Below, piece by piece: positions 1,400-37,889 of a stretch of DNA of 64,000 nt; positions within the stretch are counted from its first letter, which is position 1, and the number at the start of each line of letters is the position of its first letter. The notes beneath the pieces were generated by a model. The model saw nothing but the letters and a program-made list of their open reading frames with translations. It was not told the origin of the DNA and ran no database searches. The position numbers and the translations under genes are program-made. Source of the DNA: an uncultured Gammaproteobacteria bacterium (lineage in GTDB: Bacteria > Patescibacteriota > Patescibacteriia > Patescibacteriales > GWC2-42-12); the NCBI GenBank assembly GCA_964560005.1, contig CAZLKB010000004.1:76112-140111 (forward strand). The letters run 5' to 3'.

Positions 1400-3625
1400 A
1401 TGAAGCTAGTCATCGTTGAATCTCCAACTAAAGCCAAAACCATTACTAAATTTTTAGGTTCGGATTTTACCGTTGAATCTTCTTTCGGGCATGTCCGCGA
1501 TTTGCCTTTAAGCACTATGGGTATTGAAATTGATAATAATTTTGAACCTAAGTATGTGGTGCCGGCTAAGGCTAAAAAGAATTTAAAAAATCTTCAATTA
1601 TTAGCCAAAAAATCAGATAAAATTATACTGGCAACCGACGAAGACCGAGAGGGCGAGGCTATCGCTTGGCATTTGGCCCAGGCGCTAAAAATCAACGAGG
1701 CCCAAACCGATCGCATAGTTTTTCATGAAATTACCAAACCGGCCATAGAACAGGCCTTAGAGAAGCCCAGAAAAATTGATATGAAACTGGTTGATGCCCA
1801 GCAGGCCAGAAGGATTCTTGACCGCTTGGTCGGCTATGAGCTGTCCCCTTTTTTATGGAAGAAAGTCGCCAAAGGCTTATCCGCCGGCCGCGTGCAATCG
1901 GTCGCGGTGCGCTTAGTGGTTGAACGGGAACGGGAAATTAAAAAATTTAAGACGGATGAATTTTGGACGGTGGAGGCAAGTTTGCAAAACGAGCAGAAGC
2001 TGCCGTTCTCAGCCAGGCTGAATAAAATCGCGGACAAGACGATTGATAAGCTGGAAATAAAAAACCAAGAACAGGCGGAAAAAATATTAGAAGCGCTTAA
2101 CGGGGCAAAATATCTGGTGGCCGACCTGGAAAAAAAACAAACCAAAAAACAGCCGCCTAAGCCATTTACCACCTCCAGCTTACAGCAAACCGCCAATCGC
2201 TGGCTCGGTTTTTCCGCCAAGCAAACCATGATGATAGCGCAGCAGCTTTACGAAATGGGCTTTATTACTTACATGAGAACCGATTCGCTGAATCTGGCTG
2301 ATAAATTTTTAACCGAAACGGCACAATATTTAAAAACTAATTTGGGTGAAAAATACAGTTTAGCCTCGCCGCGCCGCTTTAAAACCAAAGCTAAGGGCGC
2401 TCAAGAAGCCCACGAAGCCATTAGGCCGAGCGAAGCCTCCCGCGCTCCCGAGTCAGTCAGTTCTGATTTAAATCCAAATCAAAATAAATTATATAAATTA
2501 ATCTGGCAGAGAGCCATCGGCTCGCAGATGCCCGAAGCGATTGTTGATACCACTACGGTTGATATTGACGCCCTAGAAACGCCCTATCAATTCAGAGCCA
2601 ACGGCCAAATTGTAAAATTTGACGGCTATCTAAAAATTTATCCCGAGGCAAGCCAGGAAATAGTGCTCCCGGAGATGAAAACAAAAGAAGAGTTGGAGCT
2701 TCTGGATTTAAAAAAGGAGCAGCATTTTACCAAGCCGCCGGCGAGATTCTCGGACGCCGGCTTGGTCAAAGAATTGGAAAAACACGGCATCGGCCGGCCC
2801 TCAACCTACGCGCCGACTATTAACACCATTATTGAACGGAATTATGTTCAGCGCGACGAGAATAAGCGTCTGGCTCCGACCGACATCGCTTTCGTGGTGA
2901 TTGATTTATTGGTTGAGCATTTTCCTAAAATTGCAGACTACGAGTTTACCGCTAAAATGGAAAATGATTTGGATATGATCGCCGAGGGCGAGGTTAAATG
3001 GCAGCCGATTATTAAAGAATTCTATGAACCATTTCACGCCAATCTGGAAAGTAAATATGAAACCATAAACAAAAATGATATTGTCCCGGAAGAGAAATCT
3101 ACCGAAATCTGCGATAAGTGCGGCGCTCCCATGATCGTTAAAACCGGCCGCTACGGAAAATTCCTGGCTTGCAGCGCTTTTCCGGGATGTAAAAATATAA
3201 AATCCATGCCCGGAACCGATCGAGATAAAAACGGCCGAGCTGACAGTAAGGAGATTGACGAACTTAAAGATAAATATAAGACGGAAGTTTGTGATAAATG
3301 CGGCGCGCCTATGGCGGTCAAAGTAGGAAAATTCGGCCCCTTTCTCGCCTGCTCCGCCTACCCTAAGTGTAAAAACATTAAAAGCATCAACGGCGCAGGC
3401 CAGGGAACCGGCGCAACCTGCCCGGTTTGCAAAAAGGGCGAGGTCGTGCAAAAACGCAGCCGCCGCGGCATCTTCTACGCCTGCAACCAATATCCTGCCT
3501 GCAAAACCACCTTCTGGAGCAAACCCACGGGCGAAAAATGCCCGGATTGCTCGAGCCTCTTGATTGAAGACGCGAAAAAAGGCGAAATAAAATGCTCCAA
3601 TAAGGATTGCGGGTATATTAAATAA
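1400..3625 (+). CDS. topA: DNA topoisomerase I with C-terminal zinc-ribbon repeats
   Basis: 741 aa. N-terminal TOPRIM 'LVIVESPTKAKTI...ATDEDREGEAIAWH', the active-site region 'GFITYMRTDS', and four CxxC...CxxC ribbons ('CDKCGAPM...CSAFPGC'). Confidence 0.95.
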   Translation: MKLVIVESPTKAKTITKFLGSDFTVESSFGHVRDLPLSTMGIEIDNNFEPKYVVPAKAKKNLKNLQLLAKKSDKIILATDEDREGEAIAWHLAQALKINEAQTDRIVFHEITKPAIEQALEKPRKIDMKLVDAQQARRILDRLVGYELSPFLWKKVAKGLSAGRVQSVAVRLVVEREREIKKFKTDEFWTVEASLQNEQKLPFSARLNKIADKTIDKLEIKNQEQAEKILEALNGAKYLVADLEKKQTKKQPPKPFTTSSLQQTANRWLGFSAKQTMMIAQQLYEMGFITYMRTDSLNLADKFLTETAQYLKTNLGEKYSLASPRRFKTKAKGAQEAHEAIRPSEASRAPESVSSDLNPNQNKLYKLIWQRAIGSQMPEAIVDTTTVDIDALETPYQFRANGQIVKFDGYLKIYPEASQEIVLPEMKTKEELELLDLKKEQHFTKPPARFSDAGLVKELEKHGIGRPSTYAPTINTIIERNYVQRDENKRLAPTDIAFVVIDLLVEHFPKIADYEFTAKMENDLDMIAEGEVKWQPIIKEFYEPFHANLESKYETINKNDIVPEEKSTEICDKCGAPMIVKTGRYGKFLACSAFPGCKNIKSMPGTDRDKNGRADSKEIDELKDKYKTEVCDKCGAPMAVKVGKFGPFLACSAYPKCKNIKSINGAGQGTGATCPVCKKGEVVQKRSRRGIFYACNQYPACKTTFWSKPTGEKCPDCSSLLIEDAKKGEIKCSNKDCGYIK

Positions 3626-3660
3626 AAAGAGCCGCCAACTTATTTAAAGCGGCGGCGACC
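3626..3660. terminator. Hairpin GCCGCC-N14-GGCGGC after topA; on the minus strand it is followed by a T-run
   Basis: Stem 3631-3636 / 3651-3656. The minus-strand reading is GCCGCCGCTTTAAATAAGTTGGCGGCTCTTTTT. Confidence 0.6.
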
Positions 3661-3878
3661 TCCGGTTTTTAGCCGAAGCGGGCAAATGCTTATAGAATTT
3701 CAAAGAACTCTACCCCCACCTTTCATTGCCTCCTGGCGGGAAAATGGACTAAAAGACCACACCGTACACCTAGTTATTATTATTATTGATCACATTCATA
3801 AGTTTAGCGCCGATTTATGCGCCTAGTGTTTAGGTTCACCCTATCTGACCATCGCGCCAGGGGGTTTGTCGTAAATAA
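3627..3878 (-). ncRNA. Candidate ~250-nt small RNA of unknown class
   Basis: On the minus strand it is bounded by a TTGACA-N16-18-TATATA/TATATT promoter (3880-3908) and by the hairpin plus T-run at 3626-3660. It is more GC-rich than other spacers. A long-range pairing CCCCCTGGCG / CGCCAGGAGG is possible. There is no credible ORF and no match to tmRNA, SRP or RNase P signatures. Confidence 0.35.
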
Positions 3879-3879
3879 A

Positions 3880-3908
3880 ATATATAATATGAGCAATAAG
3901 CTTGTCAA
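3880..3908 (-). promoter_or_regulatory. Sigma70-like promoter (TTGACA, then TATATA/TATATT at 16-18 nt)
   Basis: The minus-strand reading is TCTTGACAAGCTTATTGCTCATATTATATATTTT. The -35 is the complement of 3903-3908. Confidence 0.5.
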
Positions 3909-3911
3909 GAT

Positions 3912-3952
3912 AAAAAAAGCGGAAACGCCACGAAGCGCGTTTCCGCTTTTTT
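3912..3952. terminator. Bidirectional intrinsic terminator
   Basis: A perfect 10-bp stem GCGGAAACGC (3919-3928) / GCGTTTCCGC (3937-3946), flanked by an A7 run on one side and a T6 run on the other. Confidence 0.85.
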
Positions 3953-3965
3953 CGTATCTTCATTT

Positions 3966-4051
3966 TTATTCCTCTTTTTTCGCCCTCCGGCCGCCGTCTT
4001 TCTTTTTTTCCGTCAGACCCCTCACAACTTCCACCAATTTTTTTATGCCTT
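3966..4051 (-). pseudogene. Orphan duplicate of the last 28 codons plus stop of the 104-aa gene at 5227-5541
   Basis: 85 of 86 bp are identical to 5227-5312, with one C/T difference. It begins exactly at the stop codon and lacks the rest of the gene. Confidence 0.7.
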
Positions 4052-4075
4052 AGCCTAAAATTTTAAGTGGAAAAA

Positions 4076-5119
4076 TTATCGCTCTGGCGTATTTAACGCG
4101 AAACGCCCACTCTGCCAAGTGATTTGACGATGATTAAGAACTTCATAAAAAATATTTTCTTGTATATGATTGGGTAATTTATTATATCTCTCCCCTAGTG
4201 CTTTACGTTTTTTCTCTAATTCAGCAGCTTCTGCCGGTACAAGGTTAGATCTTTTATTTCTCCATTTCACATACTCTCCACTAAGCTCAATGTATTCTTC
4301 TCGTTCAGTGTTCTTGCTTAAAATCAAATCAATGGTTTGCTTTTCCTTGCCACTAAAAAAACCGAGTGATTTTTTTAATTCTTCAAATTCTTTAAAAATA
4401 TTACTAATTTTACTTCCTTCATCCCATTTTCTAATATCATTTCGAAACCTTCTTAAAAGAGCAGCCACTTCCTGTCGCTTTTTCCCTTTTCCTTCCTCGA
4501 GCTTTGTAAAAGCTGCATCAATAACCTCTATAAATTTCTCATATGCTGTTCTAAATTTATTTTCAATTTCACGTATTTTATTATCAATCTCTCTGCTTTT
4601 CAGAATTAACGCCTTTGCCTCATCAGCTAACAGCTCCACTTCTTTTCTAAAATCCTCCTTAAGCTTTTCCGTCTCCCGCTTCTCTTCAGCTTCTTGCCTC
4701 TTCTTTTCGTCTTCGGCTTGTATTATATCTGAAACGCCGGGAAAAGCTTCTAGGGAGGCAATTTTTTTGCTTATCTTGTCTTGCTGTTGATGCACGCCCT
4801 CTAAAAAAACTTCCGCCGCTTCCACCTGCTTTAAAAAATCAGGGTCTTTGCCAACGCCTTCTTGTTGCTTAAGTAACTCAAATTCTTTTAGTGACTCTTG
4901 GGTTTCTGATTCTAACTGATTTAGTTTTTCCGCTTCTTCTAAAAGGGCTTTTCTTTCATGAAACTTTTCATTAACAGTTTCTGCTCTTTCCCGTTTTGCT
5001 TGTTCTGCTTTTTGTTTTAAAATGGCAACGTTTTGTTTTATAGTCTCAAGACTATCTATCGGCTGTAACTCCGTCTTTTTCGGTTGAGGAGGATTTTCTC
5101 CGATCCTATTCTCGTTCAT
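4076..5119 (-). CDS. Hypothetical E/K-rich coiled-coil protein
   Basis: 347-aa ORF with strongly charged, heptad-like composition. No motif I recognise. It is bracketed by the 86-bp direct repeat. Confidence 0.6.
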   Translation of the reverse strand: MNENRIGENPPQPKKTELQPIDSLETIKQNVAILKQKAEQAKRERAETVNEKFHERKALLEEAEKLNQLESETQESLKEFELLKQQEGVGKDPDFLKQVEAAEVFLEGVHQQQDKISKKIASLEAFPGVSDIIQAEDEKKRQEAEEKRETEKLKEDFRKEVELLADEAKALILKSREIDNKIREIENKFRTAYEKFIEVIDAAFTKLEEGKGKKRQEVAALLRRFRNDIRKWDEGSKISNIFKEFEELKKSLGFFSGKEKQTIDLILSKNTEREEYIELSGEYVKWRNKRSNLVPAEAAELEKKRKALGERYNKLPNHIQENIFYEVLNHRQITWQSGRFALNTPER

Positions 5120-5226
5120 ATTTTTGGGGGGTTATCTATTATAATAATTTTCTCAATATTATTATATTATAATAGAAGAAACTTCATATTATAAATTTAT
5201 ATTATATAAAAAAATAAAATAATTGC

Positions 5227-5312
5227 TTATTCCTCTTTTTTCGCCCTCCGGCCGCCGTCTTTCTTTTTTTCCGTCAGACCCCTCATAACTTCCACCAATT
5301 TTTTTATGCCTT
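5227..5312 (-). repeat. 86-bp direct repeat, copy B (the genuine 3' end of the 104-aa gene)
   Basis: Matches 3966-4051 with a single mismatch. The two copies are 1261 bp apart. Confidence 0.9.
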
Positions 5313-5541
5313 CGCCAATCAAGAACAAATAAGACGCGCTATGCTCGATTTTTTCTTTTAGAGAATCAATAATTGTGTCGACCTTATGCAGCCGGTCGCG
5401 CATCTCCTTGATAATCTGGGAAGATTGCTTTAATATCATGGCCAGATAAAAAATCGCCCAGCAGGTAAAAATAGCTAGACCTAAAATTGAAATAGAGATG
5501 ACGATGTATAATAGGTCTTGGCTGTTGTTGAGTAGAGACAT
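5227..5541 (-). CDS. Small membrane protein (one N-terminal TM helix, charged C-terminal helix)
   Basis: 104 aa. 'LLYIVISISILGLAIFTCWAIFYLAMIL' followed by an amphipathic tail. Confidence 0.55.
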   Translation of the reverse strand: MSLLNNSQDLLYIVISISILGLAIFTCWAIFYLAMILKQSSQIIKEMRDRLHKVDTIIDSLKEKIEHSASYLFLIGEGIKKLVEVMRGLTEKKKDGGRRAKKEE

Positions 5542-5717
5542 AGAATTAAATTTAAAGTTTAAAAATCAAAATGCAAAATGCTAGCTCCGCTAGCACCCCG
5601 CAGATGCGGGGTCATTGCAGAGCAATGACAATGCAAAATTTAAAATTATTTATATTTAGACATTTTGCATTTTTAATTGTCATTTTAAACTTTGATATTT
5701 ACATTTTGCATTAATAA
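5542..5717. repeat. Family A palindromic module with GC mini-hairpins nested at its centre
   Basis: The AT-rich arms AAAATCAAAATGCAAAATG / ATTGTCATTTTAAACTTTGATATTTACATTTTGCATT flank CCCCGC-AGAT-GCGGGG and GTCATTGC-AGA-GCAATGAC (5596-5629). Confidence 0.85.
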
Positions 5718-6059
5718 CTAATTTGATTTTAACTTTTTGCTTTTTTCACCCATATCCTCAACCTCCACCTTAACCCCGCCCGCTTTTGCCGCAAACCAAT
5801 TATATATTCCCGCCATCATATAACCTAAACCCCAGCCCAATAAAGCGGTTAAGAGCGCGGTTAATACCCCTATTAATATTCCTTCGCCGAGGTTAAATAA
5901 AACTACCAGAACAGCCGAACCCAGAAAATCCTGACGCAGGATAATGTTGACTATAGTGTAAACCGCCACTATCATGGCCATAACGAAGCCGACCAAACCG
6001 TAAAGCAAAGCCGTTATTCTGGCAAACGAATTTTTGTTAATTTTTATTATTTCTTTCAT
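5718..6059 (-). CDS. Small integral membrane protein
   Basis: 113 aa with three predicted hydrophobic helices and a lysine-rich tail. Confidence 0.55.
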   Translation of the reverse strand: MKEIIKINKNSFARITALLYGLVGFVMAMIVAVYTIVNIILRQDFLGSAVLVVLFNLGEGILIGVLTALLTALLGWGLGYMMAGIYNWFAAKAGGVKVEVEDMGEKSKKLKSN

Positions 6060-6064
6060 AGAAA

Positions 6065-6141
6065 ACGAATTTAATGCGAATTAAAAGCGAATAATTTTAT
6101 CTTAGCTCAAATTATATTCGTATTAATTCGATTTAATTCGT
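6065..6141. repeat. AT-rich palindromic module (AATTCG / CGAATT words)
   Basis: ACGAATTTAATGCGAATTAAAAGCGAATA is mirrored by TATTCGTATTAATTCGATTTAATTCGT. Confidence 0.8.
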
Positions 6142-6170
6142 GCCTTGGTTCGCTATTTATTATATCACTT

Positions 6171-7061
6171 TTATCTAAAAACCGTAAATAATTTTAACCA
6201 ATCCTCAACCGATAATTCCTGGGCTCTAATTTTTCCGTTAAAACCGGCATTCTCGATGATACTTTGCGCTTCAGACTGCTCCATTTTCAACCCGGCGGCT
6301 AAATTATTTTTTAACATTTTCCGCCTTGAGCTAAAACCAAACTTTACCAGCCTAAAAAAATCTTTCTCTCTATTCTTTCCCCCTTGATACCCGCCCGACT
6401 GAACAGTCGTTCGGGCGGGAAGGGGGTGAGGGGGATTAATTTTTATCTTCACAATCGCCGAATCCACTTCTGGCTGCGGCCAGAAATATTCTTTTGGCAC
6501 CAACCGGACAATTTCTGCCTTGGCGTAAAACTGCACTGACACCGAAAGCAAACTCATCTTCCCGGGCTTGGCAGTAATCCTTTCCGCCACTTCTTTTTGC
6601 AGCATCAGCACCATTAACTCGGGTTTATTTTCTGCTTCCAAAAACTTCCTCAAAAAAATTGAAGTAATATTATAGGGTAAGTTTGCAACAATTTTAAAAT
6701 TGGATAATTGAAAATTGTTTGAAAATTGATAATTGAAAATTGAAAATTTCAATATATCTTCATTCACCACCTCCACATTTTTTATACTCTTTGCTGTTAA
6801 GCCGATCTGCAGAACTTCCGCCAATCTGTCATCCAACTCTACAGCCACTACCCGCCCGGCGTGAACCGCCAGTTTGGCGGTCATGAAACCCAGGCCGGGC
6901 CCGACCTCCAAAACCGTATCACTAGGCTTTAAATCCGCCGCCGCCACTATCTGGTCATAGATTTCTTCCCTAATTAAAAAATTCTGCCCTTTTGAACGGG
7001 CAGGCTTGATGTTATAAAGGCGGCAGAGTTCCTTGGTTTTTTCCAATAGGTCTGTATGCAT
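6171..7061 (-). CDS. rsmA: 16S rRNA (adenine1518/1519-N6)-dimethyltransferase with two repeat-derived inserts
   Basis: 'KGQNFL', the SAM site 'VLEVGPGLGFMT', 'ANLPYNI' and 'FSSRRKML'. Extra segments are 'SIFNYQFSNNFQLSNF' (nt 6690-6755) and 'PPHPLPARTTVQSGGYQGGK' (nt 6379-6434). Confidence 0.85.
   Translation of the reverse strand: MHTDLLEKTKELCRLYNIKPARSKGQNFLIREEIYDQIVAAADLKPSDTVLEVGPGLGFMTAKLAVHAGRVVAVELDDRLAEVLQIGLTAKSIKNVEVVNEDILKFSIFNYQFSNNFQLSNFKIVANLPYNITSIFLRKFLEAENKPELMVLMLQKEVAERITAKPGKMSLLSVSVQFYAKAEIVRLVPKEYFWPQPEVDSAIVKIKINPPHPLPARTTVQSGGYQGGKNREKDFFRLVKFGFSSRRKMLKNNLAAGLKMEQSEAQSIIENAGFNGKIRAQELSVEDWLKLFTVFR
6379..6434. repeat. GC-rich hairpin element in frame inside rsmA
   Basis: CCCCC...CCCGCCCGAC-TGAACAGTCG-TTCGGGCGGG...GGGGGTGAGGGGG. 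The architecture matches the intergenic G/C-run hairpins. Confidence 0.7.
6690..6755. repeat. Family B (TGAAAATT) word repeat in frame inside rsmA
   Basis: ATTGGATAATTGAAAATTGTTTGAAAATTGATAATTGAAAATTGAAAATTTC, the same words as the intergenic family B modules. Confidence 0.75.
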
Positions 7062-8903: not shown

Positions 8904-11900
8904 TTACTTTACTACAATATTCACCAACCTCCCCTTCACAAAAATCACTTTCTTTACTTCTTTGCCTTCAAGCCACTTCTTTATTTTTTCACTTTCTAAA
9001 GCAATTTTTTTAGCGTCTTCTTCGCTAATATTAACACTAACCTTCGCAGTATCTCTGACTTTTCCGTTAACCTGAATAACCAGATTAATCATTTCGTCGT
9101 GTGCTAATTTCGGATCATACTTAGGCCAGGTTTCTTTAAAAATACTTTGTTGATTGCCCAGTTTAACCCACAGTTCTTCCGCCAGATGGGGCGCGAACGG
9201 CGAGAGAACTATTAAAAATTTCTCCGCAGCCGCGCGCGGCATGGAATCTAACTTACCCGCGAAATTCATAAAAATCATCATTTGGGAGATGGCAGTATTA
9301 AATTTCATAGCTTCAATATCCTCGGTAACCTTTTTTATAGTTTTATGAAGTAATTTTGGCATGCCCTCGGGAACATTCTGACTAGGCTTTTTTCCGCTAC
9401 CGCCCGCCTGCCGGCCTACCTGTCCGATAGGCAGGCTAGACAAGCAATCAACAAATTTAACATTTATATAAAATTCAAAAATCTTTTCCAAAAATCTTTT
9501 CGCGCCCGCCAGTCCATCCGTACTCCAAGCGATAGCTTGATCAAACGGCCCCATGAACATTTCATAAACGCGCAAGGCGTCTGCGCCGTACTGTTTAACG
9601 ATATCATCTGGATTAATGACATTACCCTTTGATTTTGACATCTTCACTCCGCCCTCGGCTAAAATCATGCCATGCGAAGTCCGCTTGGCGTAGGGTTCGC
9701 TGGTCGGCACCAGGCCCAGGTCAAACAAAAATTTATGCCAAAAACGAGAGTATAGAAGATGTAAAGTCGTATGTTCCATGCCGCCGTTATACCAATCAAC
9801 CGGGATCCAATATTTAAGCTTTTTAAAATCAGCGAATGCTTTTTTGTTTTTTGGATCAGTGTAGCGCAAATAATACCAGCTTGAACCGGCCCAATTCGGC
9901 ATGGTATCGGTTTCTCGCTTGGCCTCGCCGCCGCAGCGCGGACACTTAACATTGACCCAGTCGGTAATGGCCGCTAGCGGCGATTCGCCCGTGTTGGTCG
10001 GTTGATATTTCTCCACCTTAGGCAATTCAACCGGCAAGTCTTTTTCCGGAATCGGCACATAACCGGTATTTTTCGCGCGCCCTACCCATTCCAACAATTC
10101 CGGAATTTGCTCGCCGAGAAAATGCCCGAAACCGTCCCACACTTCAAAATCCCATTCCTTAGGAATATGATCGTGGGTATAGAGCGGCACTGAATCGTCG
10201 TCTCTAGAAATCACTATTCTGATTTTATCGGCATATTCGGTAACTTTATTTAGGTCTATTTTCTCAAGCCAAAATTTCTGAAGAGCGTCTATATCCGAGC
10301 CTGTCCATTCCTGGCGCATTCTTTCCCAATCTCTGGGCGACAATTCTCCGATCGCCGAACCGATAAGCAATAAATGTCCAATTTTCTTTTTTGCCTTTAA
10401 TAAAAGATGCAAGGCGGCCTTACTGCCTAAACTATGCCCGATCACAATATCATCCGGGCTGAAATCTTTAATCAGAGGCAAAAGTTCTTTCATCCACTTT
10501 TTCAAATCAGGGTGGTCGGCGGTGGTCATGGTCGGTAGCCTAACCTCAAAACCGCGTTTCTCTAATTCATTTTTCAGCCAGGGTTTCCATTCACTGTCGC
10601 CCCGCCCCTCAAAGCCGTGGATTATCAAAACTTTTTGTTTAACCTTTTTACAATTTTCGCAGAATACCACCGGAATAGGCTCGCCCCAATAATGCTGACG
10701 CGAAAAAACCCAGTCGCGTAGTTTATAATTTACTTTTCTCGCCCCAATTTTTTCCTTTTCCAGCCACTCAGCCATTTTTTCACGGGCTTCAGCTGAATTG
10801 AGGCCGTTATAATCGCCAGAATTAAATAAAATACCATCGTTCGTATAAATTTTTCTTTTAATAAACTTATCAAAAAGATACTTGTGCAGTTCATCCGCAA
10901 CTTTTTGTTCCGCCTCTTTTTCGCTTAACCACTCAACCTTAAATTTATTTTGTTCGTTTTTCTCCAATTTTTGCTCAATTTTTTCCTCATCAACCAAGTC
11001 AAAAAGAAAACCCGTTGCTTCAATATTTCGCTGCACATTTTTTGAATGAGCGAAATAGTGATGATGTATTTTCTCGGATTGTTCCACTAATTTCACATTT
11101 TTATAACCCGTCTCTTCTTTGATTTCCCTTAAAGCGCACTTTAAAGCATCTTCTTTACTATTTAAACCGCCGCCAATAAATAAATTTCCGCCCAAATTTG
11201 ATCCCCAATTAATAGAAAGTAATTTTTTGGTTTTAGGATTCCTGACGATTGCGACAATACTCTCTCTGAATTCTTCTTTTTCCCGAGGTTTGCCTGTAAT
11301 CGGCTCAATCGTATAAACAATTTTCAAGCCGTACTTTTTGGCAAAATCAAAATCCCTCTCGTCGTGCGCCGGAACAGCCATGACTGCGCCAGTGCCGTAA
11401 TTGACCAAAACATAATCAGCAATCCAAACCGGAATTTCCTCGCCATTCAACGGATTGATCGCCTTAATTCCTTTTAATTCTACTCCGGTTTTCTCTTTTA
11501 CCTCTGCCGCTCTCTCTAAATCAGACTTCTCTTTCGCAGCTTCCAAATATTTTTTTACCTCTGACCAATTTGTTATTTTAGCCCTTAATTCTTGGGTTAA
11601 CTCATGCTCTGGAGATAAAACCACATAGGTGCATCCAAAAATTGTATCAAGACGAGTCGTAAAAACTTTAATTCGTAATTCGTAATTCTTAATTCTAAAT
11701 TCTATTTCCGCTCCTTCCGACCGCCCGATCCAATTCTGCTGTTGAATTTTTATTTTTTCCAGATACTCCAGCGGCCGCCGGCCCAATATTCTGGGCAGAA
11801 GATTTTCTTGGAGCGCCTGGCGGACTTTTCTATAGCGCACCTCGTCTGGTTGTTCCGATTTATATAAACCGGTTTTAGGATCTTTAATTAACGCTTCGGT

Positions 11901-13046
11901 CGGATAGCCGGGAGTAAAGGAGGGCGCTTCTATATTTTGCAAAATATATTCATAAGGAACGGCCTCAAACGACGCCGTGCCCGAACCGTCGGTGAAGGCC
12001 ATGGCATAATGGAAATTAGCGCGCGATTGCCCTTTTTCCCGGACGAATTTTTTCAAATAGTCAATCACTTCCCTGTCGCTGGCGCGCGGGCTTCGCGGAT
12101 TGGCGTGCTTTCTGATATGCAAGACATAGCCGTTATTTTCCGGCCACTTTTCTATCCAAAAAATATGATCGGTTGAAATGGTCGGCAAGCCGGTTTTTTT
12201 AAAATAAAATTCCGATTTCATCCGGGCGTTTTTAATCGGATCATCGCCCTCAATCAGCCGGCTATCGTCAACCGCGGTCAAGTCGTCTAAAGTAACAAAG
12301 ATTATTGACGGGACATGCGCCAGGCAGTTCTTAATCATTTTTACCTTAGCCGGATTTCGCGTGCCTATTAAAATTTTTTTTGGCTCTTTCCCGCCGCCCA
12401 GGGTCGCGATGGCCATATCCAAATCCCTATCCAACCGGTCGGCGTATTTCGTGATAGCCAGCATCCATTGATCTTTTTCCCGCTTTTCCGCCGGCGTACC
12501 GCATCTTTCGCAGCTGCCATCAACCACCTCTTCGTTGGCCAGGCCGATTTTACACGACGGACACCAATTAATGGACATTTTTTTCTTATACGCCAATCCT
12601 CTCTTTAATAATTGTAAAAATATCCATTGCGTCCATTTATAATATTCCGGGTCGGTAGTATTTATTTCCCGATCCCAATCAAAAGAAAAACCCAGCTCTT
12701 TAAGCTGGCGCCGGAAAGTGTCCGTATTCTTCTTGGTTACGGCTATGGGATGTGTGCCTGTTTTGATAGCGTAATTCTCCGTGGGCAAGCCGAAAGCGTC
12801 CCAGCCAATCGGGTAGAGCACATTATATCCTTCTAAACGGCGCTTGCGGCAGATTATGTCCATGGCCGTATTGGAGCGGATGTGGCCGACATGAAGCCCT
12901 TCCCCTGACGGATAAGGAAATTCAATCAAACCATAAAATTTAGGCTTTTTATCGCCATCAATCGCTTTGGCAAACTGATTTTTCTCCCAATATTTCTGCC
13001 ACTTAGCCTCTATTTTTTTGTGGTCATATTTCTCCATAATACTCAT
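8904..13046 (-). CDS. leuS: Leucyl-tRNA synthetase with three inserted hydrolase-type domains
   Basis: 1380 aa. HIGH region 'PYPSGEGLHVGH', CP1 'VFTTRLDTIFGCTYVVLSPEH..GTGAVMAVPAHDERDF', 'YKLRDWVFSRQHYWGEPIP' and 'KMSKS' are all present. Extra modules lie at aa ~211-426, ~583-735 (Nudix box) and ~800-993 (GHSLG serine hydrolase). Confidence 0.9.
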   Translation of the reverse strand: MSIMEKYDHKKIEAKWQKYWEKNQFAKAIDGDKKPKFYGLIEFPYPSGEGLHVGHIRSNTAMDIICRKRRLEGYNVLYPIGWDAFGLPTENYAIKTGTHPIAVTKKNTDTFRRQLKELGFSFDWDREINTTDPEYYKWTQWIFLQLLKRGLAYKKKMSINWCPSCKIGLANEEVVDGSCERCGTPAEKREKDQWMLAITKYADRLDRDLDMAIATLGGGKEPKKILIGTRNPAKVKMIKNCLAHVPSIIFVTLDDLTAVDDSRLIEGDDPIKNARMKSEFYFKKTGLPTISTDHIFWIEKWPENNGYVLHIRKHANPRSPRASDREVIDYLKKFVREKGQSRANFHYAMAFTDGSGTASFEAVPYEYILQNIEAPSFTPGYPTEALIKDPKTGLYKSEQPDEVRYRKVRQALQENLLPRILGRRPLEYLEKIKIQQQNWIGRSEGAEIEFRIKNYELRIKVFTTRLDTIFGCTYVVLSPEHELTQELRAKITNWSEVKKYLEAAKEKSDLERAAEVKEKTGVELKGIKAINPLNGEEIPVWIADYVLVNYGTGAVMAVPAHDERDFDFAKKYGLKIVYTIEPITGKPREKEEFRESIVAIVRNPKTKKLLSINWGSNLGGNLFIGGGLNSKEDALKCALREIKEETGYKNVKLVEQSEKIHHHYFAHSKNVQRNIEATGFLFDLVDEEKIEQKLEKNEQNKFKVEWLSEKEAEQKVADELHKYLFDKFIKRKIYTNDGILFNSGDYNGLNSAEAREKMAEWLEKEKIGARKVNYKLRDWVFSRQHYWGEPIPVVFCENCKKVKQKVLIIHGFEGRGDSEWKPWLKNELEKRGFEVRLPTMTTADHPDLKKWMKELLPLIKDFSPDDIVIGHSLGSKAALHLLLKAKKKIGHLLLIGSAIGELSPRDWERMRQEWTGSDIDALQKFWLEKIDLNKVTEYADKIRIVISRDDDSVPLYTHDHIPKEWDFEVWDGFGHFLGEQIPELLEWVGRAKNTGYVPIPEKDLPVELPKVEKYQPTNTGESPLAAITDWVNVKCPRCGGEAKRETDTMPNWAGSSWYYLRYTDPKNKKAFADFKKLKYWIPVDWYNGGMEHTTLHLLYSRFWHKFLFDLGLVPTSEPYAKRTSHGMILAEGGVKMSKSKGNVINPDDIVKQYGADALRVYEMFMGPFDQAIAWSTDGLAGAKRFLEKIFEFYINVKFVDCLSSLPIGQVGRQAGGSGKKPSQNVPEGMPKLLHKTIKKVTEDIEAMKFNTAISQMMIFMNFAGKLDSMPRAAAEKFLIVLSPFAPHLAEELWVKLGNQQSIFKETWPKYDPKLAHDEMINLVIQVNGKVRDTAKVSVNISEEDAKKIALESEKIKKWLEGKEVKKVIFVKGRLVNIVVK
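9406..9436. repeat. GCCTGCC...GGCAGGC hairpin in frame inside leuS
   Basis: It encodes 'LPIGQVGRQAGG'. The same CCTGCCTACCGGCAGGCAGG-type hairpin is intergenic near 32860 and 51420. Confidence 0.65.
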
Positions 13047-16262: not shown

Positions 16263-16535
16263 ATGAAAATACCAATTAATGTACGGCCAAATACAACTTT
16301 AGCTAATAAAACCGGGGCTTGGCGCACGCTCAAACCGAAATTCCTGCATGATAAGTGCGCCGCCTGCGGCGTCTGCGCCAGAGTCTGCCCCGAAGGTATT
16401 ATTTATCAGACCGACGAGGCCAACGGCAGCGGTAAAAAATATTTTGAATGTGATTTATCTTATTGTAAAGGCTGCGGCTTATGCGCTATTGAATGCCCGT
16501 TTAAGGCGATCGTAATGGAGCTAGACCAGAAATAA
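16263..16535 (+). CDS. porD: Pyruvate:ferredoxin oxidoreductase delta subunit (2x[4Fe-4S])
   Basis: Two ferredoxin motifs, 'CAACGVCARVCP' and 'CKGCGLCAIECP'. It starts 2 nt after porG. Confidence 0.85.
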   Translation: MKIPINVRPNTTLANKTGAWRTLKPKFLHDKCAACGVCARVCPEGIIYQTDEANGSGKKYFECDLSYCKGCGLCAIECPFKAIVMELDQK

Positions 16536-16689
16536 AATTTTCAATTTTCAAGTACCAATTTTCAATGAATTTTCAATTTACAATTTACAATTTACAATGA
16601 AAACTTTTTCTTTGTTTGAAAATTAATTCATTGGAACTTCATTGAAAATTGGGATTTGAAAATTTATTGATATTTAACTTTACATTTTT
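16536..16689. repeat. AT-rich palindromic module, family B (AATTTTCA / TGAAAATT words)
   Basis: AATTTTCAATTTTCAAGTACCAATTTTCAATGAATTTTCAATTTACAATTT... is mirrored by ...TTCATTGAAAATTGGGATTTGAAAATTT. It ends in TTTAACTTTACATTTTT directly before the porA ATG. Confidence 0.85.
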
Positions 16690-17931
16690 ATGAATAAACC
16701 CCAGATGCTAGAGGGCTCACGCGCCATCGCCCTGACTATCAACAATATTAAACCCACGGTTATTTCCGCTTATCCGATCACGCCGCAAACGCATATCGTC
16801 GAAGACCTGGCTAAATTTAAAGCCGACGGCCAAGTTGAATACGAGTATGTTAGGGCTGAATCGGAATTTGCCGCCGCTTCAATCGTGGCCGGCGCCTCGG
16901 CGGCCGGGGTCAGGACTTATAGCGCCACCAGTTCGCAAGGGCTTCTCCTAATGGCTGAAGTGATTTTTAATATCGCCGGCATGCGCTTGCCCGTGGTGAT
17001 GACTTGCGCCAATCGCGCGGTTTCCGCGCCGATTAATATTTGGAACGATCAGCAGGATGTGATGGCTATTAGAGACGCGGGCTGGATTTTACTTTTTGCC
17101 GAAAATCACCAGGAAGCGGTTAATCAGCATATTATGGCTTTTAAAATCGCCGAGCAGCTTAAAATACCGGTAATGGTCAATGTAGACGGGTATATTATGA
17201 CCCATACTTATGAACCGGTGATCATTCCTACGGCCGAACAGATAAAAAAGTATTTGCCTGATTATAAACCAGCGGCCGGACAATTTTTAGACACGAAAAA
17301 CCCGGCAACCTTAGGCGCCCTGGCCACGCCGGCTCATTATCTGGAAATTCGCCAGGAACTGCACGACGACCTAATCGCCAGCCTTAAAACCATTAAACAA
17401 GAATATGACAGTTTTAATAAAATCATTCCTTCATTAAAAATTAAAAATTACAAAATTAAAAATTTTAGTAAAACTTCAATAATAGTTGATACTGGGTTGT
17501 TTGAATATACCGGTCCTAAATCTCCACGAACAGTGCTGGTTGCCATGGGTTCGGTCGTCGGCACTATTAAAGACACTGTCAGCAACTTCCCCCCTGACAA
17601 GGGGGGCAAGGGGGGTTTTTCCTCTGGCGGAAAAGATGAGAGCAAGGTTGGCATTTTAAAAATCAAAGCTTTTAGGCCTTTTCCGGCAGATCAAATCCTT
17701 AAAATAATTAAACCGGCCAAAAATATTGCCGTGATAGATAAATCCATCTCCTTAGGTCATATCGGAACGCTAGCCTCAGACATTAAAGCCGTAGCTCAAG
17801 GAAAAATCAATGCTAATATTTCCAGTTTCGTCGTCGGCCTGGGGGGGCGCGATATTACTAAAGAGATAATTAAAAAAATTATTAAATTAGCCAATAGAAA
17901 AAGCGACGGAGCGCAATTTATTGGAAAATAA
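16690..17931 (+). CDS. porA: Pyruvate:ferredoxin oxidoreductase alpha subunit with repeat-derived inserts
   Basis: 'EGSRAIALTI...AYPITPQT.IVE', typical of PorA. Extra segments are 'SLKIKNYKIKNFS' (nt ~17434-17466) and 'FPPDKGGKGGFSSGG' (nt 17589-17615). Confidence 0.9.
   Translation: MNKPQMLEGSRAIALTINNIKPTVISAYPITPQTHIVEDLAKFKADGQVEYEYVRAESEFAAASIVAGASAAGVRTYSATSSQGLLLMAEVIFNIAGMRLPVVMTCANRAVSAPINIWNDQQDVMAIRDAGWILLFAENHQEAVNQHIMAFKIAEQLKIPVMVNVDGYIMTHTYEPVIIPTAEQIKKYLPDYKPAAGQFLDTKNPATLGALATPAHYLEIRQELHDDLIASLKTIKQEYDSFNKIIPSLKIKNYKIKNFSKTSIIVDTGLFEYTGPKSPRTVLVAMGSVVGTIKDTVSNFPPDKGGKGGFSSGGKDESKVGILKIKAFRPFPADQILKIIKPAKNIAVIDKSISLGHIGTLASDIKAVAQGKINANISSFVVGLGGRDITKEIIKKIIKLANRKSDGAQFIGK
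17589..17615. repeat. CCCCCC/GGGGGG mini-hairpin in frame inside porA
   Basis: CCCCCCTGACAAGGGGGGCAAGGGGGG. Confidence 0.7.
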
Positions 17932-18067
17932 ATTAATTTTCAATTTACAATTTTCAATGAATCTACAATTAATTAATTTTCAAACAAATTTTTTGTAGCT
18001 GTTTGAAAATTTAAACATTAAATCATTGAACATTGTTAGAAAATTGAAAATTGAAAATTGAAAATTT
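17932..18067. repeat. Family B palindromic module
   Basis: AATTTTCAATTTACAATTTTCAATGAA... is mirrored by ...GAAAATTGAAAATTGAAAATTGAAAATTT. It forms the left border of the block inserted in the por operon. Confidence 0.85.
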
Positions 18068-18661
18068 ATGCTTAAGTCTTTCCCCAAAATATTAATTATC
18101 GCCTTTCTCTCAATTTTTATTATCCAATCATTCTGTTTAATTTTATTGTTAACTTTACCCCTGGCTAGCCAGGCAGCCGAAATTAAATTCATACCGCAAG
18201 TCGGCATTCCTAATTCTGAATTTGACGCGGGTAAAGGTTACACTTTTGTTAAAGATGACTCTACCGCGCCGATTGCTAAATATATTAAAGCCATTTATCA
18301 ATACGGTATCGGCATTGTCGGCATCTTGGCCGCCGTGGTCTTAATGTACGGCGGCGTGCTCTGGATCGTGGCCGGCGGCAACGCCTCGCAAGTCGGCGAA
18401 GCTAAAGCCTGGATCGGCGCCGCCCTGACCGGCCTGATTTTAGCCCTGACTTCTTATATGATTTTAAATACAATTAACCCCGCGCTGGTGAATTTGCAGA
18501 CTACGCCGGTACCGGGGGTGAAAGAAGCGCCTGCTACTGATAAGGGCTGTTGTATAACGCCAGATGCTACAAACGAAAATAACACCGAGGACGAATGTAA
18601 GTCAAAGGCTGGCGCTACCCAGGATTATGACTGGAGTGAAATAATGTGCCCTATAACATAA
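18068..18661 (+). CDS. VirB2/TrbC-like (CPR 'T4SS pilin'-like) membrane protein with a Cys-rich C-terminal tail
   Basis: 197 aa. Signal peptide, then 'YIKAIYQYGIGIVGILAAVVLMYGGVLWIVAGGNASQVGEAKAWIGAALTGLILALTSYMILNTI', which is two hydrophobic helices joined by a short polar loop. The tail is 'CCITPDA..ECKS..IMC'. Confidence 0.55.
   Translation: MLKSFPKILIIAFLSIFIIQSFCLILLLTLPLASQAAEIKFIPQVGIPNSEFDAGKGYTFVKDDSTAPIAKYIKAIYQYGIGIVGILAAVVLMYGGVLWIVAGGNASQVGEAKAWIGAALTGLILALTSYMILNTINPALVNLQTTPVPGVKEAPATDKGCCITPDATNENNTEDECKSKAGATQDYDWSEIMCPIT
18281..18504 (+). repeat. 224-bp segment 100% identical to 19187-19410
   Basis: Read base by base, from TATATTAAAGCCATTTATCAATACGG to AATTTGCAGACTAC. The flanks are unrelated. 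Confidence 0.95.
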
Positions 18662-21806: not shown

Positions 21807-21845
21807 ATTTAACCTCCCCTACCCCTCCTTTAAAAGGAGGGCTTT
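21807..21845 (-). repeat. 39-bp element, copy 2 (inverted relative to 24-63)
   Basis: ATTTAACCTCCCCTACCCCTCCTTTAAAAGGAGGGCTTT. It lies immediately 3' of the rpoC stop codon. Confidence 0.85.
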
Positions 21846-25787: not shown

Positions 25788-25864
25788 ACTGGTATAATAT
25801 TTAAAATATATTTTAATAAATAAATTAATCTATTTTCCCATCATGTGCTGATTACCTAATTACA

Positions 25865-33644: not shown

Positions 33645-36600
33645 CTATTTACTTTGAATCGCTTGTATTTGCATTTTTAAATCATCAATTTGCTTTTGCT
33701 GTTCCAGGTTTTGCCTCTCTAAAGCCTGAATCCTTTCGTCGTGGACTAGGAACTTCTTAAACAAATCTTCAACCTTGGCCGCTAGATTGCTTAAAGCGGC
33801 GGCCAATTCTTTAATCGCTTCAACTATAAAAGCTTCAATACCCTGCTTTTCCAGCGATTTATAGCCGTTTTGATCGGTTTTAACCCATTCGGGAAAAACT
33901 TTTTCCACATCTTGGGCGATAAAGCCGCGCTGCAAGCCCTCTCCCCGGCTTTTATCTTTCCAATAGAAACTGACGCCCTGTAAGCTGGTTATTTTATCAA
34001 GAGAGCCCTCCAGCGGCTGAATCATTTCCTTCAGTCTGGCGTCAGAGATCACTGCCCAGACTCCTGTGGTATTGGCGGCACTGCCGTCTTTAGTAAAAAT
34101 TATCTGGTCATCAAGATTCCAAAATCTTAATTCGTCGGTCTCATCGTCTTGATAAATCCCCCAATAGGGGCTATCGGCGCTCTGGATTTCAATTTCTGCG
34201 TTGCCGCTGGCGGTTTTTAGATGCACTAATTTATTCGGCGCCGCCGTGCCTATGCCTAAAAAGCCGGAAGCGTTGAAAACCGCCTGAACCGCGTTAGAGC
34301 TGTTTTTTATCTCCATTATATTGGCCGTTTGGCCTCCTGAATAACCATAGAGCGCTAGGGCCGGGACATTTACGCTCAAATTATTGATGCCGGCGATAAC
34401 CATAAGCGAAGCGGCGTCGCAGACGCTTTCCTGGCATGCGATCGCTGAAGGATTAGCTGCCGTATGCCTATTGCCGAGCACCTCGATACCATAATAATTG
34501 AACATTCTGATGCCATAATTAGAAATTGTCTGTATTCCAGACTGCTCATTCACCCAAAAAGACGGCATCACCACCTTGCCGGCATTCGTAAAATCGGTCT
34601 GATAAAACTTCCTGCCGGAATCGCCGAAGAATAAATAGCTATTTCCGGCGGCGTTAGTTCCCGCGATATGCAAGTCGTTATAGTTTGTATTAAGCCCTTT
34701 AACGGCATATATCTGCGCCTGCTGTGTCGGAAAATCCGGGCTGGAAAGAAGAAGCTTGGCATTTACCTTGTCGTATTGAAAAGTAGTGCCGATACCCACA
34801 TCGCCGCCGGCATAATTTATTCCTCCGGCAACATCAGCCCACTGGCTGGTGGCGGCCGGCCAGCTGGTTCTGGTCACTCCTCCCAAACGGATGCCGCCCG
34901 AACTCATGTCTAGAGCGGCTTGCGGATTAGTCGTGCCTATGCCCACATTGCCGCTTGCATTGATAAAAACCTTAGGCGTATCGGCTGATTCAACGGTATT
35001 ATCAGGAAAAAAAGCAATACCGCCGTTATTAGCGCCAATCCGAAGCCAATTACCGTTAACTTTGGCCACCAACGATAGATCATTGTTCCTGCCTAAACCC
35101 ATAAACCCTTTAAGCGCTGTCCCGTCATTCGTATAGAAATTAACATCATTATTATTCCAAAGACCGATACTGCCGTTATTTACGCTTAATTTCTGGGCTG
35201 GCGCCGCTGTGCCGATGCCCACATTGCCGTTTTTAAGCACGGTCAGGGCGTTAGACGGACTGCCGGCGGCCGTCCCGTTGCCTACGATAAACAACGGATC
35301 GGTCGCTACCCAGCTATCCACGGTCCCGCTAATAACATTATATTGCCCAAATACCGCCGAAGCGTAGGCTTGAGCCGTGGTATGAGCGCCGAAGGCGGCT
35401 GAATAGTTGCCGCTAGCGCCGTTATCAAATCCGCCGCCGACAAAAGAATATTGTCCTTGCGCAATATTTAACTTTCCTCCACTAACTGCGGCCGAAAGGC
35501 CTATCGCTTGGTTTCCCTGCCCGCCACTGATTGTAGAATAATCGCCTTGAGCGATACTCTGCCGAGTAGGTATAACATCTGTTGCCGGTCCGCCTCCGGA
35601 TACTACGGAATAACCGCCTAAAGCGTGGTTGTCTCTCCCGCCGCCGACAAAAGAATGAGCGCCGTCGCTACTGTTATTGCTGCCGCCGCCAACGAAGCTG
35701 ATAGACCCGCCGGCAAAATTATTTTGCCCCGCTGCAAAACTGTTATCTCCGCTGGCATTGTTGTTTTGCCCGAAAGCAACGGAATAGTTACCGATATTAT
35801 CATTATTCCATTGTGCTCCGTTAACATAGCCTGCTCTAAACGCGGCTTTCCTGGGATACCAAAAAAGCCTTGTGCCCGCGCTTAGATTAACTTCTGTCCA
35901 GCCTTGGCCGAACTCGCCTACGGCCAAAATATCCCCTCCTGAAACGATTTCAATCGCCGTCCTTGGTTCCGTAGTACCAATGCCAATACTGCCGTTGCGG
36001 GCTATGGCAAACTTGTATTCAAAAGCAGGATCGATTTGAGAATCGTGCAAACCGAAATTTTGTGAATTTTGAAAATACCAATTGCCTGTTGATTTACTAA
36101 AACCTATGCGACCGGTATAACCGTCATTCAAAACTTTATTTGTATTTAATAAACTATCCCAATAGGAATTAGCGTATAAAATAAAATTACCACTCTTAGC
36201 GTCAGCGAGAGTCATTCTACCGTCAACGTGAAGAGTATTCTTTGGAGTTGATGTGCCGATGCCGACCTTTCCCGAATTATAATAAATATCACTTTCGGAA
36301 GTTGTCCATTGGCTATTACCAAACAAAATACCATTTTTACGTAAATTACCAGTAAAATTAATATCACCGGCAACGGCTAATTTATAGCCCGGACTCGTCG
36401 TCCCGATGCCGACATTACCGGTTGTATTTTGTAAAACTATTTTTCCGGAGTTATCATCAATAAACCAAAGGCTGCCAGCAACGTTAGCCACCTCATAATC
36501 CTCAGATCCAGCCGATAAATTAACACCAGCACTTCCTCCGCTTGACGAAATATTTAAATATCTGGTTATAGAAGAGGGTGAAAAAGGATTATTCGTTCCA

Positions 36601-37889
36601 ATCCCGACATTGCCGGTATTGTAATATATGCTACTACCAAAATTATGCCATTGGCTGCCACCTCCATTAGGAAGTGATGCGACATTTAATTCTTGTTTAC
36701 CAGAAGTCATAACTCGGTTAATACTATTACCGGGCACGGCCACGAATAAACCATTGCCGTAAGTTACGGATTGCCAGCTATTAGCTTCGGCGGCTGTTCT
36801 AGCGGTCCAGTTGGCGCCGTCAGGAGAAGTCATAACACGATTAGCGCCATCAGACGCCACGGCCACGAATAAACCATTGCCGTAAGTTACGGATTTCCAT
36901 TGATTAGCTTGAGCGGCTGTTCTGGCGGTCCAGCTGATGCCGTTAGGAGAAGTCATGACTCGATTAGTACCATTAGTAGACACAGCTACAAACAAGCCAT
37001 TACCATAGGTCACGGATTTCCATTGATTAGCCTCTATGGCCGTTCTGGGAGTCCAAATTGCGCCGTCGGGAGAAGTCATGACTAGATTTAAACCATTATC
37101 AGTACCCACAGCCACGAATATGCCATTACCGTAGGTCACAGAAGTCCAATTAGTGGCTATAGAAGCTGTTACAGGGGTCCAAATAGCGCCATCAGGAGAA
37201 GTCATAACGCGACGGCCGCCATCACCAGCCACGGCTACATATATACCATTACCGTAGGTTACGGAATGCCAGGCATTAGCTTCAGGGATTATTGCACCAG
37301 TCCAGGTGATGCCATCAGGAGAAGTCATGACGCGGTAAGAACCTCCTGCTGACACGGCATCAGCCACGGCCACGAATAGCCCGTTGCCGTAGGCCACGGA
37401 AACCCAACTACTATTATCGGCGGCTGTTCTGGCGGTCCAGTTGATGCCGTCGGAAGAAGTCATAACTTGACCAAAAGCAGCATAATCAGACACGGCCACG
37501 AATATACCATTGCCATAAGCCACAGAAGTCCAAACATTAGTTACGGGAGTTGATCTGGCGGTCCAAGATGTTCCCTTAGAAATAATATCTCCGACGACTT
37601 CCAGCGCCGCGCCCGGTGTGATTGTCCCGATGCCGACCTTGCCATAAACCGCCAAACCGGTAGCCAGAATATCATCCATATTAACCTTTAAAGATCCATA
37701 TTTAATCTGCGGCAATGAACCCATATTAATCGGCGCATCGCAACCCGGATTACCGGTCGCACAAGTCGGCGGACTCGCTAAAGGCGCTGTCCAGGCGGCT
37801 AAAAGTGATTGAAAAGAGATTAATAAACCTAAAGTTAAAAAAACTGTTATTAATAAATAGCTAAAAATTTGTAAATTTCTCTTGGTCAT
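33645..37889 (-). CDS. Giant surface fibre/adhesin: 7-blade propeller, tail-fibre-like 'GNVGIGT' repeats, YadA-head-like beta-roll, C-terminal S74 intramolecular-chaperone domain
   Basis: 1414 aa with an N-terminal anchor. Seven ~41-45-aa repeats of the form 'W.SV.YGNG.FVAV....RVMTSPDG..WT.RT' (nt ~36690-37577). 'SVAFGQNNNASGDNSFAAGQNNFAGGSISFVGGGSNN'. C-terminal 'ISDARLKEMIQPL...GVSFYWKD...GFIAQDVEKVFPEWV' (nt 33648-34046) followed by a coiled coil. Confidence 0.85.
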   Translation of the reverse strand: MTKRNLQIFSYLLITVFLTLGLLISFQSLLAAWTAPLASPPTCATGNPGCDAPINMGSLPQIKYGSLKVNMDDILATGLAVYGKVGIGTITPGAALEVVGDIISKGTSWTARSTPVTNVWTSVAYGNGIFVAVSDYAAFGQVMTSSDGINWTARTAADNSSWVSVAYGNGLFVAVADAVSAGGSYRVMTSPDGITWTGAIIPEANAWHSVTYGNGIYVAVAGDGGRRVMTSPDGAIWTPVTASIATNWTSVTYGNGIFVAVGTDNGLNLVMTSPDGAIWTPRTAIEANQWKSVTYGNGLFVAVSTNGTNRVMTSPNGISWTARTAAQANQWKSVTYGNGLFVAVASDGANRVMTSPDGANWTARTAAEANSWQSVTYGNGLFVAVPGNSINRVMTSGKQELNVASLPNGGGSQWHNFGSSIYYNTGNVGIGTNNPFSPSSITRYLNISSSGGSAGVNLSAGSEDYEVANVAGSLWFIDDNSGKIVLQNTTGNVGIGTTSPGYKLAVAGDINFTGNLRKNGILFGNSQWTTSESDIYYNSGKVGIGTSTPKNTLHVDGRMTLADAKSGNFILYANSYWDSLLNTNKVLNDGYTGRIGFSKSTGNWYFQNSQNFGLHDSQIDPAFEYKFAIARNGSIGIGTTEPRTAIEIVSGGDILAVGEFGQGWTEVNLSAGTRLFWYPRKAAFRAGYVNGAQWNNDNIGNYSVAFGQNNNASGDNSFAAGQNNFAGGSISFVGGGSNNSSDGAHSFVGGGRDNHALGGYSVVSGGGPATDVIPTRQSIAQGDYSTISGGQGNQAIGLSAAVSGGKLNIAQGQYSFVGGGFDNGASGNYSAAFGAHTTAQAYASAVFGQYNVISGTVDSWVATDPLFIVGNGTAAGSPSNALTVLKNGNVGIGTAAPAQKLSVNNGSIGLWNNNDVNFYTNDGTALKGFMGLGRNNDLSLVAKVNGNWLRIGANNGGIAFFPDNTVESADTPKVFINASGNVGIGTTNPQAALDMSSGGIRLGGVTRTSWPAATSQWADVAGGINYAGGDVGIGTTFQYDKVNAKLLLSSPDFPTQQAQIYAVKGLNTNYNDLHIAGTNAAGNSYLFFGDSGRKFYQTDFTNAGKVVMPSFWVNEQSGIQTISNYGIRMFNYYGIEVLGNRHTAANPSAIACQESVCDAASLMVIAGINNLSVNVPALALYGYSGGQTANIMEIKNSSNAVQAVFNASGFLGIGTAAPNKLVHLKTASGNAEIEIQSADSPYWGIYQDDETDELRFWNLDDQIIFTKDGSAANTTGVWAVISDARLKEMIQPLEGSLDKITSLQGVSFYWKDKSRGEGLQRGFIAQDVEKVFPEWVKTDQNGYKSLEKQGIEAFIVEAIKELAAALSNLAAKVEDLFKKFLVHDERIQALERQNLEQQKQIDDLKMQIQAIQSK

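Follow-up and report, generated by a model that had tools for sequence, protein, structure and literature searches.

A lineage-specific insertion-duplication at the 3' end of a small membrane-protein gene in a Patescibacteria genome

In the 64,000-nucleotide stretch of DNA analysed here (the window), the 3' end of a small membrane-protein gene is present twice, and a segment carrying a single gene of foreign composition lies between the two copies. This arrangement is derived, and the segment contains no mobility genes. We interpret the locus as a lineage-specific insertion-duplication, for which the leading explanation, held at somewhat less than an even chance, is Campbell-type integration of a circular DNA by host homologous recombination. 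The features of the locus are collected in Table 1.

Table 1. Features of the small gene-topA region, in window coordinates
Feature	Coordinates	Strand	Description
topA	1400..3625	+	Pfam Topoisom_bac, Toprim and Zn ribbons; most related loci also have it convergent with the small gene
Hairpin T1	3629..3660		Abuts the topA stop codon; read from the sequence
Bidirectional intrinsic terminator T2	3912..3952		Same position relative to a stop codon as the terminators of relatives
Copy A	3966..4055	-	Orphan duplicate of the last 28-29 codons and stop of the small gene; non-coding; in-frame TAA 4052-4050
Spacer, 20 nt	4056..4075	-	From the inserted-gene stop to copy A; in-frame TAG 4057-4055 at the junction
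Inserted gene, 347 aa	4076..5119	-	E/K-rich, all-helical; member of an uncharacterised Patescibacteria family
Upstream region, 107 nt	5120..5226	-	AT-rich; promoter-like site 5195..5166
Copy B	5227..5316	-	Functional 3' end of the small gene; encodes the family-invariant E77, G78, K80 and L82
Small membrane-protein gene, 104 aa	5227..5541	-	N-terminal transmembrane helix, helical region, K/R-rich tail; conserved Patescibacteria family

The duplicated gene end

The two copies form a direct repeat with 88 of 90 nucleotides identical, a start-to-start spacing of 1261 and an exact match over the initial 59 nt (in window coordinates). The first-pass annotation had reported 85/86 identity between 3966-4051 and 5227-5312, and the alignment agrees with this and extends the repeat to 3966-4055 and 5227-5316. 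It had also suggested a search for other copies of the 86-mer; with up to three mismatches allowed, copies A and B were the only two across 64 kb, against a chance expectation of 0 (100 shuffles).

As had been claimed, copy B is the real 3' end of the 104-aa ORF (5541..5227, minus strand), containing its last 28 codons and the stop codon, which is the exact end of the repeat. For the 104-aa protein, 163 homologues of about 100 aa were found in the Patescibacteria group, with the helical region highly conserved. The four residues E77, G78, K80 and L82, all encoded within copy B, were invariant in 32 aligned members (alignment A1). The small protein scored 18.6 bits with DUF948 (PF06103), which is under the Pfam gathering threshold of 37.2 and is a resemblance only.

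Copy A had been described as an orphan fragment next to a strong bidirectional terminator, and the ORF reading and the folding of the region both fit this description, with 13 nt separating copy A from T2. In the frame of copy B, copy A reads G, a stop, GIKKLVEVVRGLTEKKKDGGRRAKKEE and a second stop, and in the profile of the small-protein family it aligns with the C-terminal positions 78-103. The first difference between the copies is in the Glu77 codon, which is GAA in copy B and TAA in copy A (4052 A against 5313 C), and the second is ATG in copy B against GTG in copy A, exchanging Met for Val (4025 C against 5286 T). With E77 unchanged across the 32 aligned proteins and Met the consensus residue, copy A is the simplest place for both changes to have arisen. 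It is a decaying orphan that has kept its link to the ancestral terminator, and copy B keeps the small gene intact.

T2 folds at -29.6 kcal/mol (z = -6.6; 0/200 shuffles were as good), with an A-run on one side and a T-run on the other. Ancestrally it terminated the small gene, and it is now located downstream of the inserted gene; the proposal that the old terminator had been left downstream of the newcomer is supported by the placement of T2, which matches the layout of stop codon, spacer and terminator in relatives. No terminator separates the small gene from the inserted gene, and the small gene, now without its own terminator, probably reads through into the inserted gene.

The gene neighbourhood in the window consists of dprA, topA, the small gene, a gene for a 113-aa membrane protein, ksgA/rsmA and leuS. 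The leucyl-tRNA synthetase (8904-13046, minus strand) has 1380 aa, with NUDIX and serine-hydrolase/alpha-beta-hydrolase domains inserted, and the hydrolase insertion is common to two relatives (L002 and L008).

Other repeats were also observed in the window. An AT-rich repeat family of 7-8-nt units (CATTTTG and AATTTTC types), often in inverted pairs, occupies many intergenic regions, including 1263-1398, 5542-5716, 16529-16674, 17925-18067, 20373-20525, 25860-26014, 31666-31790, 48460-48604, 53993-54119, 59964-60155 and 62176-62296; the units at 5572-5602 surround a GC-rich hairpin. Tandem coding repeats of 123-126 nt are found at 36612-37596, inside a 1414-aa ORF (33645..37889) with Peptidase_S74 and YadA-head-like domains. 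Two further pairs may be shared terminator-like elements: a 39-nt pair (24-62 and 21807-21845), 97% complementary and 21.7 kb apart, each member with its own small hairpin, and a hairpin-containing direct repeat of 54 nt (41422-41475 and 45640-45693), 93% identical and 4.2 kb apart.

Ancestral state of the locus and origin of the inserted gene

The region was compared with 57 related loci carrying the small gene. The first-pass annotation had predicted that a comparison downstream of topA would show an uninterrupted small gene followed by the terminator, and this was seen in the closest readable relatives. In L057, L058, L009, L005, L008 and L012, nothing interrupts the small gene, and after it come 8-30 nt, one bidirectional terminator and the convergent topA stop. 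The identity of the small protein to that of the window is 80% in L057, 77% in L058 and L009, and 72% in L005, and the gap between the small gene and topA is 50-90 bp in the closest readable relatives compared to about 1600 bp in the window. The closest relative, L074 (84% identity), is uninformative, its contig ending 46 nt past the stop codon. No second copy of the small gene's 3' end was found in the 57 loci, where extra matches were 7-bp tandem repeats or chance, and none of these loci encodes a relative of the inserted protein. As the close relatives are uninterrupted and no other locus has the duplicate or the inserted gene, the arrangement with the insert is derived and lineage-specific. 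Copy A together with T2 reproduces the ancestral order of stop codon, short spacer and terminator, and copy B is continuous with the body of the gene and is then followed by the AT-rich DNA of the cassette.

T1 and the adjoining 3661-3911 are extra DNA, absent from the close relatives with their short gaps. The approximately 250 bp of 3661-3911, between T1 and T2, contain a strong minus-strand promoter-like site (3908..3879, 11/12 matches), with no credible ORF and no Rfam match, and may be a lineage-specific small-RNA unit. An RNA family at the locus was also considered; the Rfam scan of 3400-6200 returned sub-threshold chance matches only.

Among the loci with an adjacent topA, 13 of 29 have the gap enlarged to 0.4-4.4 kb by unrelated DNA; across the group, this convergent space next to the small gene recurs as a site of gene gain. 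Lineage-specific gap DNA was observed in L011, L013, L014, L021, L030, L037 and L041-L046: L014 has a toxin-antitoxin-like pair and L037 a 4.4-kb multi-gene island, and small ORFs of the coiled-coil or membrane type also occur. In L002, topA and dprA have become separated.

The insert is 1171 bp long, and no DNA similarity to it was detected elsewhere in the window or in 74 loci. The description of a 347-aa E/K-rich ORF with an AT-rich upstream region between the copies was accurate: the protein contains 16.7% E and 13% K, and its AlphaFold model is all-helical (mean pLDDT 77). The inserted gene has a GC content of 0.367 and a GC3 of 0.297, both of them the lowest among the 47 window genes, and its GC3 is 3.3 sd under the window mean (0.478, sd 0.055). 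With these minima, the inserted gene looks foreign, from an AT-richer source.

No family or solved fold matching the 347-aa protein was found in Pfam, NCBIfam, PHROG or PDB. A word-indexed protein search gave the impression of a true orphan, and a word-index profile search recovered only 3 family proteins; this impression was corrected by an exhaustive phmmer search, which detected about 30 full-length relatives of 340-415 aa with 23-29% identity and E-values down to 4e-28. The inserted gene therefore belongs to a sparse, fast-evolving Patescibacteria family of helical proteins of about 350 aa, with the motif R.SLG.F.GK.K.A.D.ILS; the alignment of this family (A2) was too diverse for locus scans. 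A search for other copies of the coiled-coil gene had been proposed, and these distant members at other loci are what it yielded.

In other Patescibacteria, the chromosomal contexts of the family members are unrelated. One is in a Candidatus Taylorbacteria genome (L049), two (L054 and L056) are beside ribosomal protein L25 and an SLT_2 protein, and another (L055) is in a primase/ArdC/relaxase region. A native locus of the family in the window was considered, and L25, SLT_2 and the other neighbours from L054 and L056 were searched for and found to be absent. No copies of the cassette were detected in JGI metagenomes, IMG/VR, GenBank phages or PLSDB plasmids, and no relatives of the inserted protein were found in viral, phage or plasmid collections.

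The inserted ORF ends at a TAA (4078-4076), with a second in-frame stop, TAG, seven codons further on at the junction with copy A. The homologues have 9-25 residues past a conserved (T/S)P, compared to two in the 347-aa protein, and from this reading of the sequence the present stop may be a recent premature one.

A contig of 1426 bp (L053) carries one distant homologue of the inserted gene between two similar terminator hairpins (52-104 and 1243-1295), which are 53 nt long at 79% identity with a core of 39 nt at 87%. The layout resembles that of the window, and the likeness is unproven. A link between the small gene and the inserted gene in L053 was also considered, based on the K-rich 21-aa tail of an upstream partial ORF, and was given no support by a profile search.

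The near identity of the repeats had been taken as a sign of a recent event. The two copies differ at 2 of 90 positions, compared to about 19% nucleotide divergence of the small gene from its nearest known relative despite purifying selection, which indicates that the insertion is much younger than the split from that relative; this part of the claim stands, and "recent" holds only in this relative sense. It is highly improbable that the arrangement is instead old and stable, with its repeats kept similar through gene conversion. Gene conversion is evident in this genome from a 224-nt identical block in neighbouring paralogues (described below), and the L053 homologue between two similar terminators (53 nt at 79%) could be seen as a parallel. 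However, the cassette is in no relative at the locus, the closest relatives are uninterrupted, and the composition of the insert shows no drift towards that of the host. The first-pass annotation had named relatives with the same arrangement and diverged repeats as the mark of an old structure; there were none among the 57 loci.

Read-set evidence for the cassette

Apart from the window, the inserted protein is recorded only in a 1262-bp k=31 unitig (L001, Logan) from the read set SRR12133404, which is not necessarily the read set behind the deposited contig. The unitig is identical to window 3995-5256, with 61 nt of one end and 30 nt of the other belonging to the repeat. Its first 31-mer is the earliest to hold the copy-A-specific C4025, its last 31-mer is the final one with the unique base 5226, and these breaks are the points where a k=31 de Bruijn graph must branch given both repeat copies. 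The unitig therefore shows that there are real molecules with repeat sequence on either side of the cassette. An exact look-up of the 104-aa protein gave no match, probably since the unitig breaks within its gene.

The first-pass annotation had proposed that about 1.26 kb carrying the coiled-coil gene was inserted at the end of the small gene. This unitig, the uninterrupted locus of the relatives and the atypical composition of the insert all support the proposal.

A k=31 unitig cannot phase the 59-nt core of the repeat, and an integrated cassette gives the same graph as an empty site plus a 1261-bp circle, the two states having all four junction k-mers in common. As the Logan unitig stops at exactly those branch points, it would also be compatible with an assembly or population artefact, in which the chromosome is uninterrupted and the 1261-bp unit, whether a separate circle, a tandem array or a variant from a minority strain, was threaded once by the assembler. 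We consider this very unlikely. Reads of 100-150 nt cross 59 nt, so standard assemblers would phase the core, the contig continues for 152 kb, and a 1.26-kb circle with no replication gene is an implausible replicon. Even in that case, real molecules would carry the cassette with repeat flanks.

Mechanism and meaning of the insertion

Campbell-type insertion-duplication by a single crossover is exploited for insertion-duplication mutagenesis in naturally transformable bacteria. The homologous segment becomes a direct repeat flanking the insert, a segment that extends to the gene end leaves the target gene whole, and recombination between the repeats reverses the event. The locus is like this in its layout: a contiguous insert is bracketed by two direct copies of a single chromosomal segment, and the sequence outside them is collinear with the ancestral, uninterrupted locus. 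The Campbell-type explanation is favoured. The locus differs in that the homology is only 86-90 bp, the circle is a proposed one, and the locus is known from its sequence alone.

The donor would have been a circular DNA carrying the 3' end of the small gene, taken up by the cell and presumably acted on by the host's homologous recombination. One reciprocal crossover between chromosome and circle, inside the 59-nt identical core, would have placed the 1171-bp segment, which brings the foreign-looking gene together with an AT-rich promoter region of its own, after the small-gene stop codon and ahead of the original terminator, so that T2 would now end the transcript of the newcomer. A reverse crossover between the copies could precisely excise the cassette as a 1261-bp circle and restore the ancestral locus. 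As precise excision is possible, the cassette is potentially unstable and could be variable within the population. No further genome carrying the cassette came up, nor did any empty-site allele from the same species or any circular form.

DprA, RuvA and a PilB-type ATPase, which have recombination and DNA-uptake functions, are encoded in the window; no recA was seen in its 64 kb. In two adjacent T4SS-pilin-like paralogues (18068-18661 and 18845-19744; 197 and 299 aa), the transmembrane core is encoded by a 224-nt block with 100% identity between them, while their flanks are unrelated. This block points to recent gene conversion or a segment swap, indicating that recombination or gene conversion is active in this genome.

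The Campbell-type model is weakened by the short homology, as 86-90 bp is little for an efficient RecA-type crossover. It is also weakened because the circle must already join the foreign gene to a 98%-identical piece of the host small gene; with this requirement, the model explains spread or re-integration better than the first event. No pre-formed composite circle is needed, and no integrase, if the target was duplicated de novo during illegitimate capture of a foreign 1171-bp fragment at a break or stalled fork at the stop codon and terminator. Host sequence would then have been copied twice, either by filling in ends offset by about 90 nt or by a polymerase that switched template and came back in about 90 nt upstream. 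This is the main rival to Campbell-type integration, and we regard it as somewhat unlikely. It directly explains the near-identity of the repeat to the host allele, the nearest relatives being only about 80% identical in this stretch, and it accounts for both differences appearing derived in the copy that is under no constraint. Unrelated DNA without mobility genes in the same gap of 13 of the 29 other lineages suggests a fragile or permissive site; those other insertions, however, have no flanking duplication, though old ones would have decayed. A duplication of 86-90 bp would also far exceed the usual bacterial target-site duplications, and no donor locus with which to compare the junctions is known. 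The positions of the two mismatches were considered as a discriminator between the models and were uninformative, as both would fall in the first 31 nt (in gene orientation) by chance with a probability of about 0.12.

Another possibility is a remnant or non-autonomous integrative element, whose attP included the small gene's 3' end and, through site-specific integration, gave rise to the repeats as attL and attR, the integrase having been lost or acting in trans. Integrative elements that have decayed to keep attL and attR after losing their integration genes are known as CIMEs (PMC5704250). The locus is like these and other elements that insert at the 3' ends of genes: the target gene is undisrupted, the orphan gene end is distal, and mobility genes may be absent (PMC5704250). 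One of the flanking direct repeats includes the 3' end of the target gene, which is intact, as with elements in the 3' ends of housekeeping genes, and the composition of the insert is foreign. Nevertheless, such an origin is quite unlikely. A search of the cassette and the 64-kb window gave no site-specific recombinase, and neither an att-like duplicate nor an integrase was found at the site in the 57 small-gene loci. The identity segments of att sites are 8-60 bp (PMC5704250), compared to a repeat of 86-90 bp with a 59-bp exact core here. The element would be only 1.17 kb with a single gene as cargo, in a Patescibacteria host; no related autonomous element is known, and the phage, plasmid and viral collections contain no relative of the inserted gene.

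Bacterial microdiversity has a known minor class made up of variable segments between direct repeats. Like the insert here, they are short, lineage- or strain-specific and not ascribed to any known mobile element, and their direct repeats permit deletion (PMC2884548). In a survey of such segments, 66-94% of the flanking repeats were shorter than 30 bp (Touzain et al. 2010, PMC2884548), whereas the repeat here, a copied coding 3' end, measures 86-90 bp.

A single-gene unit of about 1.2 kb bounded by repeats, with a conceivable circular intermediate, also resembles an integron cassette. In contrast to integron cassettes, there is no IntI found here, one of the repeats is part of a conserved gene, and the insert has its own promoter-like region. 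The repeat was also considered as an attC site and rejected, as it folds at only -7.5 kcal/mol (z = -1.8) with no attC-like imperfect hairpin. A direct duplication of the target flanking the insert is also seen with transposons, but the duplication is 86-90 bp here instead of the 2-14 bp that is usual. The ends of the cassette have no terminal inverted repeats, and neither an integrase nor a transposase was found in the cassette or among ORFs of at least 110 aa in the 64-kb window. The locus is without the defining features of a CIME, an integron cassette or a transposon, and it resembles Campbell-type insertion-duplication and att-flanked elements.

A more far-reaching version of Campbell-type integration, to which we give a slim chance, is that the 1261-bp unit is a minimal integrase-free mobile cassette. 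It would consist of one gene and an 86-90-bp "homing arm" derived from the 3' end of a host gene, and would cycle by excision, natural transformation and single-crossover re-integration that spares the target. To our knowledge, Patescibacteria have few classical mobile elements, and such a cassette, if real, would mean a homology-guided spread of accessory genes in this group.

To summarise, the locus is a tidy and fairly ordinary gene-gain event in a Patescibacteria (Falkowbacteria-like) genome and is not a new kind of system. As far as we know, gene gain in the ultra-small Patescibacteria is poorly documented. The locus is a rare readable scar of the recent acquisition of a single gene, in which the ancestral state is recoverable, the newcomer is of foreign composition, the end of a gene is duplicated and the terminator is reused. 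If occupied and empty alleles or circles do exist, the locus would be a natural system for integrase-free gene gain and loss.
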